Virus record (IMG/VR): IMGVR_UViG_3300045988_019695
Location: 32,001 to 96,000 of that record
Reading direction: 5' to 3' (one strand)
DNA length: 64,000 nt
DNA from: a virus
Below the pieces are notes generated by a model that saw only the letters and a program-made list of their open reading frames with translations, did not search any database and was not told where the DNA came from. The position numbers and the translations under genes were made by a program. Below, piece by piece: positions 47,305-49,407 of this stretch (the stretch's first letter is position 1; every line of letters starts with the position of its first letter).

Positions 47305-49407
47305 ACATAAGAACCCTGTGTACTATAATTAGGTAAGTACATATAGTAGATCCCATTAGTCTACGTACGAACATTGACTGGATCCGAGAATATGTTAACC
47401 CTGTCTTGCAGGGCGAGATCACTCAAAAGGTAGGATGAAATGTATCAAACATTGAAACAGTTTGATATAGGTAGGAGAAGCGTTGTATCAACTCCTAGAG
47501 ATTACGCAGCTGGACTTGTGAGAACCGTCTGGAGACAAGCTGGATGAGGCTGTGTAATCTAAAAACGCATAAGTCCCAAGAAGGGCATAATGAACCGTAT
47601 CGGAATTGTATGTGATAATACTAAACATACACGAACGTTACACGAGATGAACTATATTGGTCCCCAGTAGGTGAACAGAATTGCATACATGGTATGGTGC
47701 ATGATGCTGGAAGAACCGAGGATATCCCAAACAATATAGAAGTATTATTAGCCGTAGGTAGTGTTTCTAGTGTCCAAAGCTAGTATAAAGGCCGAAAAAC
47801 TACATCAATACTGTGGGAGTAATACCACACAGAGTAAACTAAATGAGTTTGCTGACTATACCAAAACCTTACTGTTCGATTCAGTACAACTCCGTTGAAG
47901 GGGTGCCAGGGATGGGGTAGAAGTGTCTGATTGTGACCGCTAGGCTTTTCTTGTTTATGCGGTATATAAAAGTAAAACAAGCGCAAGGGTTGGGCAGCCC
48001 CTTAATCGAAGCTCTACGGGAGTATCGTACGCGGGTGAAGATCGCGGTGAAAATCTATTCCAGTTGTATTATTAGGATGTTAGGCAATCCGAACTTACAG
48101 CCAATTTCCATGAAAATTAAATCGTTCATGAGATTATGATCGATGACTTCGTTACAGTCAAAGAAAATTGATGGAGCGCTATCCTAGAATAGTAAATAGC
48201 AAAGCAAGGTAGAAAGTTGATTCGATATATGTCCATCCAGGACCGTTTGACCTCCACTTTCATCCAAAACAATCTAGACTAATAGTTTATTTGTACTATA
48301 ATATACAATATTATATAGTCTCTACAGAGTAGTAAGCTGGTATATTATGTATGCGTATGTTGTATGCAAGAGATATAAACTATGAAAATTTAGAAAGTTT
48401 AAAATTAACATGTCTAACAAAAATTGATGTCCCTTTATAGAGTGTATCTTACGTTGTAAGTAAGGACTTGAGGTAAAGAAATCGAGTGCCAACCGATATG
48501 CCAACCATGCTAAAGTATACTGCGCAACAGTATATGTAAACATAAAGGTTCAAAGCAATACAGGAAATTGATGGGCAGCTTATATCTATGTTGTAAAACG
48601 ACTGTGTATATTATATGTGTATACTGTCTCTATACATGTATATTACGTTATAAGTGGGTGACAAGATGAAATGTATGGGTTGAATTCCCAATATTCGTGC
48701 ACTATAAATAGGAGGTAGTAATACCGGTACAGAAAAATTGCAAACATCAGCAAAGATGAAAAAGCCGTAAAGTCTGTGATGGGTTTGATCCTGAGACATT
48801 CCGATAACCAACCGCTGGGTACATGCCATAAGCCGAGTACCGCAGTAAGGAGACCTAGCTGACAGTCGCTTCTAAGTTAGCAGTAGAGACAATCTGCTTT
48901 AATAACAATCATGTAGTAAGATCTTGTAAGTATAGTAAGGGAAATACGACCGAGATTCTACATATTTTCGTGGGTTATAAGAATTCTAAGATTCTATGAG
49001 TGTTAGTTGCTCTGCAAAATTTCACCAACGAAGATTAGAATAGTTAAGTTAGAAAAAACGTGAACAAAATAGCAGAAAATAGTTCAGCATTTGATTATGC
49101 AAAGAAAGCATTCAAAGCTTTAGACGACGGGCCTGGATAATCCAGTAAATGTTAATTGTATCTCATGTATACAATTCCTGTCACAAGCCTATTACCCTAT
49201 TGTTGTAATAGGAAGAGTGTGACTAAGTCTGTAACAAAGCGTCTACAATAGTAGAACTTTCTTTAGGAAACTAAGTAAGCAAAATAGTAACCGAGTATCT
49301 TCGTATCAGCGTTGCTTTATTCAATAAACAACGGCAACGGTGTAGCCAAAATACACCATATTTAAAAATCATATCGTTAGTTAATCAATAACGATATCAA
49401 AAAGGAT
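47305..49407 (+). ncRNA. 2.1-kb ORF-free, hairpin-dense region (candidate large structured RNA and/or origin)
   Basis: No ORF above 73 aa on either strand, and stops occur in all frames even when TAG is ignored. There are many 5-8 bp stems (examples: TATCAAAC..GTTTGATA 47443-47468, AATTGTAT..ATACAATT 49154-49176, CCTATTAC..GTAATAGG 49188-49212). An AT-rich near-palindrome lies about 48294-48320. The 15-nt promoter-like motif sits at its 3' end. Confidence 0.45.
49294..49308 (+). promoter_or_regulatory. 15-nt motif AGTATCTTCGTATCA, copy 5
   Basis: Exact repeat, 100 nt upstream of ATG 49408. Confidence 0.5.

Follow-up and report, generated by a model that had tools for sequence, protein, structure and literature searches.

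The stretch of DNA analysed here, referred to as the window, comprises 64,000 nucleotides (nt) of a viral genome (positions 32,001 to 96,000 of IMG/VR record IMGVR_UViG_3300045988_019695), whose otherwise tightly packed genes leave a gap of 2.1 kb between a 133-amino-acid (aa) gene and a 197-aa gene (Table 1). A first reading of the letters alone, called here the original prediction, had proposed for this gap a large ornate non-coding RNA (ncRNA), a replication origin or both, and the comparative analysis reported below indicates that it is very probably a conserved structured-RNA locus. The gap together with its flanks shares 92% identity with cr124_1 and 90% with cr7_1, both of them crAss-like phages (Crassvirales; Suoliviridae; Oafivirinae; Burzaovirus), and the window is assigned by sequence to a crAss-like phage of the genus Burzaovirus within the Suoliviridae. 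All the genes around the gap lie on the plus strand. As originally pointed out, no credible open reading frame (ORF) is found in the gap, where the longest overlapping ORFs reach 73 aa (48322-48543, minus strand) and 72 aa. The three stop codons TAA, TAG and TGA occur in all six frames, leaving a longest open stretch of 261 nt, and the anticipated failure of stop-codon recoding to rescue a gene was borne out as well, given that reassignment of either TAG or TGA yields no ORF, here or in relatives. The claim that gene junctions elsewhere measure 0-100 nt was too narrow, as other gaps above 100 nt exist (e.g. 42518-42943); none of them is near 2 kb. The GC content of the gap is 37.3% overall and 31-32% in its middle.

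Coding capacity was examined through the phase of variable sites among 30 close relatives. Within the gap these sites were distributed evenly over the three phases (113/106/117, p=0.76), uniformly so in every 300-nt part, whereas each flanking ORF showed an excess of variable sites at third positions (e.g. 117/76/346 and 38/16/122; p from 6e-3 to 7e-52). Nucleotide diversity (pi) was 0.042 in the gap versus 0.066-0.20 at neighbouring third codon positions, and such a low value indicates that the gap is under purifying selection. Moreover, translated comparison of the gap with other genera gave short matches spread over all six frames, which is the expectation for conserved non-coding DNA, and the frameshifted or split protein gene that a translated search might have revealed did not appear. 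The gap is a non-protein-coding locus.

The region was found by blastn in eight public genomes from six Oafivirinae genera or unclassified relatives, always as a gap of 2.0-2.2 kb between the same two genes, and in these records it is either unannotated or spuriously annotated. The collection grew to more than 100 homologous loci when IMG/VR was scanned with the most conserved 17-mer and nhmmer was then applied, and the distance from an upstream ORF of 120-165 aa to a downstream ORF of 195-218 aa was 1974-2278 nt in 88 of the 88 loci with both flanks. Further clades were reached only by the covariance model described below, namely Loutivirinae (cr53_1), Boorivirinae (cr50_1, cr55_1, cr10_1), Bearivirinae (cr6_1) and Uncouvirinae (cr125_1, cr115_1), where the gap measures 2054-2543 nt whether the code is standard or has TAG or TGA reassigned. 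Oafi-, Louti-, Boori-, Beari- and Uncouvirinae share the gene order of a sigma factor, a gene of ~460-570 aa, one or two small genes and the gap, followed in all five subfamilies by a gene of ~190 aa and then the DNA polymerase, and an ORF-free gap of 2.0-2.5 kb sits at this syntenic place in all of the more than 100 loci with readable flanks. Overall identity of the gap from one genus to another is 45-60%, and it exceeds 70% in some blocks, compared with 26-36% for the flanking 197-aa protein and 14-30% for the 504-aa protein among the same genera. The locus is conserved in sequence, length and position across Suoliviridae (the 'delta' crAss-like phages), and relatives lacking the region or its conservation, an outcome that would have spoken against the original prediction, were not encountered: sequence, structure and position are kept in five subfamilies.

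Evidence for RNA structure comes from compensatory base changes. In a pipeline of local realignment and RNAalifold folding applied to 23 representatives less than 90% identical to each other, pairs were counted when at least 85% canonical and represented by at least one compensatory pair type, and 76 covarying pairs were obtained in the gap compared with none in the 2 kb of upstream coding sequence and two in the 2 kb downstream. The resulting list comprises 35 helices from 47382 to 49395, of which 29 show compensatory changes. A global MAFFT alignment folded with RNAalifold over the whole gap was too sparse, because variable hairpins misalign, and was superseded by the locally realigned windows and a covariance model; a column-permutation control for helix finding proved too lenient. 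For the 5′ domain, a structure drawn by hand on the unrefined MAFFT alignment had double changes in 31 of its 38 pairs, with 139 compensatory cells against 48±6 in shuffles and 31-58 when the partners were slid. The covariance model of this domain, named R1 (154 positions, 30 pairs, window 47374-47541), detects each phage locus once, its sole match in the 64-kb window scoring 130.5 bits (E 3e-33). Over 93 matches (68 distinct) compensatory changes occur at all 30 pairs of R1, adding up to 570 compensatory cells versus 203±15 in shuffled and at most 137 in slid controls, and 82.6% of the cells are paired compared with ~40% after sliding. In bacterial genomes, 79 of the 80 motif matches fetched were chance occurrences, and none of these 79 was scored by R1; the remaining one lay on a phage-sized contig binned with Segatella copri. 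On the other hand, the model recognises genomes that had not been recruited by the motif (cr55_1, cr50_1, cr6_1, cr125_1 and cr115_1; E 3e-20 to 8e-7). Similar results were obtained for the central domain (47750-47892), with 22 of 25 pairs compensatory, 101 compensatory cells against 32±5 and 94.3% of cells paired against 27-50% when slid, and for the 3′ domain (49075-49250), where 11 of the 12 predicted pairs are compensatory. Altogether, sequence change at the locus preserves ~30 or more helices along with two pseudoknots and a large number of conserved loops. Covariation strongly supports the status of the locus as a putative RNA gene, and the proposal of a large ornate ncRNA stands on its syntenic conservation, its absence of a coding signature and its dense compensatory changes over nearly the whole length. 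The covariation test on aligned relatives that had been suggested along with that proposal, here performed with our own pipeline, came out in its favour.

Folding of the two strands on the same alignment columns gave 172 G-U against 126 A-C cells for the plus sense, and the helices of the minus-strand fold showed the reverse, 121 against 167. The summed consensus energy from RNAalifold was -195 kcal/mol for the plus and -168 kcal/mol for the minus strand. The asymmetry reaches 106 G-U to 53 A-C in the 5′ domain, and in the central domain two U-G pairs are kept in 13 of 15 and 11 of 15 sequences, which points to the plus strand since the other strand would carry C-A mismatches. From this asymmetry, the conserved U-G pairs, the A-rich conserved loops and the orientation of the neighbouring genes, we infer a large multi-domain structured RNA read from the plus strand.

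A close-up view of the elements collected in Table 1 shows a 5′ domain in which the H3 hairpin carries the loop AUUGAAACA in the window and UGAAAA in relatives; this UGAAAA/GAAA loop is conserved, and the stem below it covaries freely. The loop of H4 forms a predicted pseudoknot whose middle pair is CG in 15, AU in three, GC in three and UA in one sequence, the helix being 91.6% paired. The near-invariant loop of H5 keeps its core GAGAACCGUCUGG in cr55_1, a genome recruited independently of the motif, and as UGAGAACCGUCUGGNGA it fits the kink-turn (K-turn) consensus position for position as a sequence pattern, with a covarying canonical stem (C-stem), a 3-nt bulge UGA, tandem G.A/A.G pairs and then CC/GG capped by GUCU. 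Further downstream, the tandem GGTGAAnATC units noticed originally are indeed present as two copies at ~48034-48056, and they are better understood as the two 5′ strands of a small pseudoknot. The AT-rich near-palindrome announced at 48294-48320 is also there; it lies in the less conserved middle, within which a locally conserved block is seen at ~48305-48355. The domain closed by the long-range AGUGC/GCACU helix contains hairpins at 48515-35, 48618-36 (loop CUGUCUC) and ~48676-90, varies between ~220 and 330 nt as hairpins are gained and lost between clades, and has a closing pair that is G-C in Oafivirinae and C-G in five of five Loutivirinae sequences. Among the long-range inverted repeats considered, I3 and I7 are only suggestive and I4 was rejected as not conserved; an internal duplication of the two halves was rejected too, no nhmmer similarity being found between them.

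Table 1. Features of the gap and of its surroundings in the window (positions in nt; helix names as used in the text)
Feature	Position	Strand	Remarks
ORF-free gap between 133-aa and 197-aa genes	47305-49407		Flanking genes end at 47304 and start at 49408
Structured RNA locus, approximate extent	47345-49245	+	First to last covarying helix
H1 hairpin, conserved loop UCYCAUUAG	47348-47363	+	Pairs 8-12 with 20-27: AU/GC/UA exchanges
5′ domain (R1 match)	47374-47541	+	Pa 47379-85/47433-39; H2 47399-403/47409-13
5′ domain, helices H3, H4 and H5	H3 47441-50/47460-69; H4 47473-77/47492-96; H5 47515-18/47536-39	+	
Pseudoknot, GCGUU (47480-84, H4 loop) with AACGC (47564-68)	47480-47568	+	Encloses H5
H5 near-invariant loop UGAGAACCGUCUGGAGA	47519-47535	+	Invariant in A3 and A4
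H6 (CCC/GGG, loop AAGAA) and H7 (UGUAUGU/ACAUACA), covarying hairpins	47575-47632	+	47609-12/47626-29: 16 compensatory cells
Central domain	47750-47892	+	Five helices including conserved U-G wobble pairs
Small pseudoknot, GCG/CGC (48031-33/48043-45) and AGAU/AUCU (48039-42/48053-56)	48031-48056	+	AGAU/AUCU: 22 compensatory cells
AT-rich, less conserved middle, few covarying helices	48075-48400	+	Windows at offsets 770-990: 0-2 covarying pairs
Domain closed by long-range helix AGUGC/GCACU (48485-89/48699-703)	48485-48703	+	
3′ domain	49075-49245	+	Hairpin 49087-90/49097-100; helices 49117-20/49237-40 and 49140-43/49172-75
Promoter-like 16-19-mer AAGTATCTTCGTATCA	49292-49310	+	Exact copies at 42534, 42632, 42800 and 49294
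Inverted repeat ATATCGTTA/TAACGATAT (49371-79/49389-97), then CAAAAAGGAT	49371-49407	+	Abuts downstream ATG
RAGATH-1 hammerhead ribozyme	36973-37052	+	Short gap of the early region; 71.8 bits against a gathering score of 56.3
Permuted (two-piece) transfer-messenger RNA (tmRNA), phage-encoded	42944-43297	+	Tag DNVNNIVDYTNVA*
Extracytoplasmic function (ECF)-type sigma factor gene	44262-44819	+	Pfam Sigma70_r2/r4
504-aa gene, then 133-aa gene	133-aa gene 46903-47304	+	Upstream of the gap
197-aa gene, then 194-, 182-, 328- and 220-aa genes	197-aa gene 49408-50001	+	Downstream of the gap
DNA polymerase gene	53257-55215	+	~4 kb downstream of the gap
tRNA cluster	31061-31429	-	ARAGORN: one tRNA with 4-base anticodon 'tgaa'

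Regarding the ends of the locus, the first conserved hairpin starts ~40 nt past the stop codon of the upstream gene and the last covarying helix ends at ~49240. The promoter-like motif AGTATCTTCGTATCA, which the original prediction had placed at 49294, is present there and recurs exactly at 42534, 42632 and 42800. The 16-mer AAGTATCTTCGTATCA has exactly four copies in the window, three of them in the 427-nt gap upstream of the tmRNA (42518-42943), where a degenerate fourth copy is seen at 42714. The copy at 49294 stands 113 nt before the downstream start codon, beyond the 3′ end of the last covarying helix, and is therefore more likely to act for the downstream gene than for the RNA. The motif is probably a phage promoter and its copies upstream of the tmRNA tandem promoters, in which case a first transcription unit would cover the tmRNA, the sigma-factor block and the large RNA, with the downstream genes belonging to the following one. 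The inverted repeat ATATCGTTA/TAACGATAT is conserved in sequence across genera with one compensatory cell only, and because it hardly covaries it is more likely a protein-binding (operator) or translational element than a part of the RNA. No intrinsic terminator was found on the plus strand inside the gap, nor a separate promoter motif at the 5′ edge of the RNA.

The ECF-type sigma factor gene, ~2.5 kb upstream of the RNA locus, is kept in all five Suoliviridae subfamilies, and a tmRNA gene upstream of the sigma-factor block is also seen in cr124_1 and in a Boorivirinae locus (L070:844-1097). In this same Boorivirinae relative, a RAGATH-22 RNA (193 bits) occupies a place upstream of the tmRNA (L070:224-389). 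The proteins ORF504, ORF133 and ORF197 and their neighbours have no relatives in PHROG, Pfam or PDB, homologue searches for the flanking proteins returned relatives that were all at least 88-91% identical, and the downstream protein has no stretch conserved enough for a profile-based locus search. Elsewhere in the window, Rfam detected a further tRNA (31356-31429) that ARAGORN had missed, and the tRNAs of this cluster are possibly suppressor tRNAs. On the minus strand, ORFs of at least 90 aa in the standard code are missing from long stretches of the region at 1-33 kb, which fits TAG recoding of late genes. With regard to the host, the phage-genome-sized contig JAJWOH010000001.1 (L174; 101,563 bp) has the RNA 5′ domain (127 bits) and was binned in a metagenome-assembled genome of Segatella copri, and a homologue of the downstream protein (P0163) is labelled 'Prevotella sp.' in UniRef; both are weak hints to the host genus.

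Several explanations other than a trans-acting structured RNA have to be weighed. A protein gene that is decayed, frameshifted or recoded, or else a group of micro-ORFs, might be suggested by public records that annotate coding sequences (CDSs) in the homologous region, such as gp52 of cr7_1 (L002:4378-4860, minus strand), ECCNAKDA_00150 of Bohxovirus (L039:4068-4574, minus strand) and about a dozen tiny CDSs in the record of Dulem virus 42 (L041:3970-5978). These CDSs are without conservation between genera and are probably annotation artefacts, and with stops in all frames under all three codes, no codon periodicity in the variation and translated similarity over all six frames, this possibility is rejected on present evidence. 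A highly diverged self-splicing intron or another ORF-less mobile ribozyme would be compatible in size with the gap, in a family whose genomes commonly hold group I introns (PMC7886860) and in a window with a hammerhead ribozyme elsewhere, and it is nevertheless highly improbable: the intron and ribozyme models of Rfam give no match even at E≤10, each flank is a complete gene conserved in its own right (with a stop and a start codon, respectively) and not an exon, and every genome examined has the element at one and the same site, in contrast to a sporadic distribution. Helix covariation alone cannot separate RNA from single-stranded DNA, and a DNA-level element, either a replication origin or a site acting as single-stranded or extruded hairpins, would suit a place adjoining the replication gene block and an AT-rich stretch (48.1-48.4 kb) with a near-palindrome. 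The origin proposed at first found no backing in the gap, which has no iterons, no direct-repeat family of more than two copies and no tandem array beyond two micro-repeats of 2.2 copies. Nor does the GC skew switch there, as its cumulative minimum lies at ~32-34 kb, where gene orientation flips, and it is positive and steady over 44-54 kb. In addition, ~1.9 kb with at least 30 maintained helices, pseudoknots and A-rich loops is unlike known origins, and the excess of G-U over A-C together with the conserved U-G pairs argues for one functional strand, so that a DNA element appears very unlikely. An RNA acting in cis on the flanking operon as leader or regulator, for example a giant 5′ untranslated region (UTR) of the downstream replication genes or a 3′ UTR processing platform, would agree with a contiguous position on the same strand as the flanking genes, with the lack of a recognisable plus-strand terminator within the gap and with the conserved inverted repeat directly before the start codon of the downstream gene. 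However, the promoter-like motif shared with the region upstream of the tmRNA stands between this gene and the structured part, suggesting that the gene has its own start. The structure is also kept where the flanking proteins have diverged to 14-36% identity, and its size and complexity are far beyond those of any leader known to us, all of which makes a cis role unlikely.

More serious is the existence of two or more adjacent independent structured RNAs (e.g. ~47345-48070 and ~48400-49245), a possibility to be taken into account although not a probable one. In this regard, the middle ~300 nt are AT-rich, poorly conserved and nearly free of covarying helices, no covariation-proven helix joins the halves, and the 3′ part varies more between subfamilies, its 3′ domain being much shorter in Loutivirinae. 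Moreover, the exact 11-mer TGTACTATAAT occurs at only two places in the 64-kb window, the 5′ edge (47319-47329) and the middle of the gap (48292-48302). This pair is limited to the present species, the shared motif being absent from a 79%-identical relative and from 21 other representatives, which makes it weak evidence for an internal promoter. Against independent RNAs, the domains always occur together, in the same order and with a near-constant total length, and a candidate pairing (47689-95/48342-48) would bridge the halves, but with one-sided GU/GC changes only. One RNA of ~1.9 kb is the leading reading over two adjacent RNAs. Several observations nonetheless weigh against a single structured RNA of this kind. 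Proven helices span at most ~330 nt, which falls short of establishing a single molecule of 1.9 kb, and the weakly structured middle counts on the same side. The original description of the gap as full of stems holds for stems that only covariation shows to be real and not for folding energy, which in single sequences is no better than in shuffled ones: over 716 nt, z-scores against dinucleotide shuffles were -0.13 for the plus and -0.56 for the minus strand. The G-U to A-C asymmetry is only ~1.4-2 to 1 in cells that are phylogenetically non-independent, and the invariance of the H5 loop is partly a sampling artefact because most loci were recruited through the motif of this loop. Furthermore, no partner protein for the RNA was identified among the flanking proteins in Pfam, PHROG or PDB, and the expression, strand and ends of the RNA are inferred.

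With a single RNA as the leading reading, a general scheme can be proposed. The RNA would be transcribed rightward with the early/middle gene block that holds the tmRNA and the ECF-type sigma factor, and it would fold domain by domain into an architecture held by the K-turn-like motif, GNRA-type loops and pseudoknots. During infection it would then work in trans, with an architectural or catalytic function, and its most plausible role may be that of the RNA core of a phage ribonucleoprotein (RNP) or of a self-assembling RNA particle; GOLLD, ROOL and OLE are built that way. A trans-acting scaffold or RNP role can be put forward only tentatively. The last ~115 nt of the gap, with the promoter-like motif and the inverted repeat, would correspond to expression signals of the downstream gene. 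That the locus encodes a single trans-acting RNA of ~1.9 kb, a new class with its own role in Suoliviridae infection as ribozyme, RNP core or self-assembling particle, is plausible at somewhat below an even chance. If true, it would exceed in size every structured non-ribosomal RNA known so far from a bacterial virus, with a possible connection to the tmRNA of the phage, its own sigma factor and stop-codon recoding, an unusual toolkit for translation and transcription.

To our knowledge, large and intricately folded RNAs are rare, and almost all characterised ones are either RNP cores or ribozymes. An RNA locus of ~2 kb shared by a whole phage family would add to this short list, and it would be a target for cryo-electron microscopy, for metatranscriptome mining and for understanding host takeover by largely uncultured phages. 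Published descriptions rank Crassvirales first among the DNA phages of the human gut in abundance and spread, and of the reads mapping to gut virus genomes their 'delta' group, now Suoliviridae, took up 13-18% (PMC7886860). In public annotations the locus is either left blank or filled with spurious small CDSs. The R1 covariance model can in turn serve as a specific nucleic-acid marker for Suoliviridae, with one match per genome and none among the 79 chance motif matches.

In comparison with known RNAs, none of the 4227 families of Rfam 15, including GOLLD, ROOL, OLE, HEARO and the introns, reaches its gathering score in 47305-49407. At E≤10 the gap shows only four chance-level matches to unrelated small families, far below gathering, and no match at the gathering threshold falls inside the gap in 14 loci of five subfamilies. 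The membership in GOLLD, ROOL or intron families considered at first, for which these models were the proposed check, is therefore not supported, and neither is a setting near tRNAs: the nearest tRNA is 6.6 kb off (40583-40657) and the tmRNA 4 kb, and in Uncouvirinae a tRNA-Leu lies ~1.3 kb downstream of the gap without being adjacent. Full-text literature searches turned up no paper on a structured RNA in Crassvirales, and none on this element. The RAGATH motifs (RAGATH-1 hammerhead, RAGATH-22) are likewise structured RNAs in non-coding gaps of these phages, but they measure 80-170 nt, are already catalogued and none of them overlaps the 2-kb gap. Group I and II introns of crAss-like phages are also structured RNAs of hundreds to thousands of nt, whereas this locus interrupts no gene, is fixed in all members and has no endonuclease or reverse transcriptase ORF. 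At a smaller scale, the K-turn Kt-7 follows the pattern GGC-GAA-GA-A-CC/GG-G-GA-GCC, which the H5 sequence CUUG-UGA-GA-A-CC...GG-N-GA-CAAG reproduces as a pattern match alone; it differs in having a non-canonical (NC) stem of only 2 bp with a tetraloop cap (K-loop-like), and no L7Ae-type protein was found nearby. OLE and other RNP-forming large bacterial ncRNAs are, as this locus, ornate, highly conserved and placed in an operon with conserved genes of unknown function, a setting that suggests an RNP here too. In contrast, this locus is not homologous to OLE, belongs to a phage and not to a cell and is presumably several times longer, and no partner protein was identified for it. GOLLD (RF01998) and ROOL (RF03087) are large multi-domain structured RNAs of unknown function borne by phages (PMC12286853, PMC5737381). 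Unlike them, the locus has no match to either model, is not adjacent to tRNAs and occurs in a single phage family, always at the same syntenic place. It is also presumably ~2-3 times longer than both. Judged by these comparisons, it is a new RNA family with no match to any described class, although large ornate RNAs without an assigned function already form a broad category, and with GOLLD and ROOL it shares many conserved loops, clade-specific inserted hairpins and a structure that is recognised only by comparative analysis.

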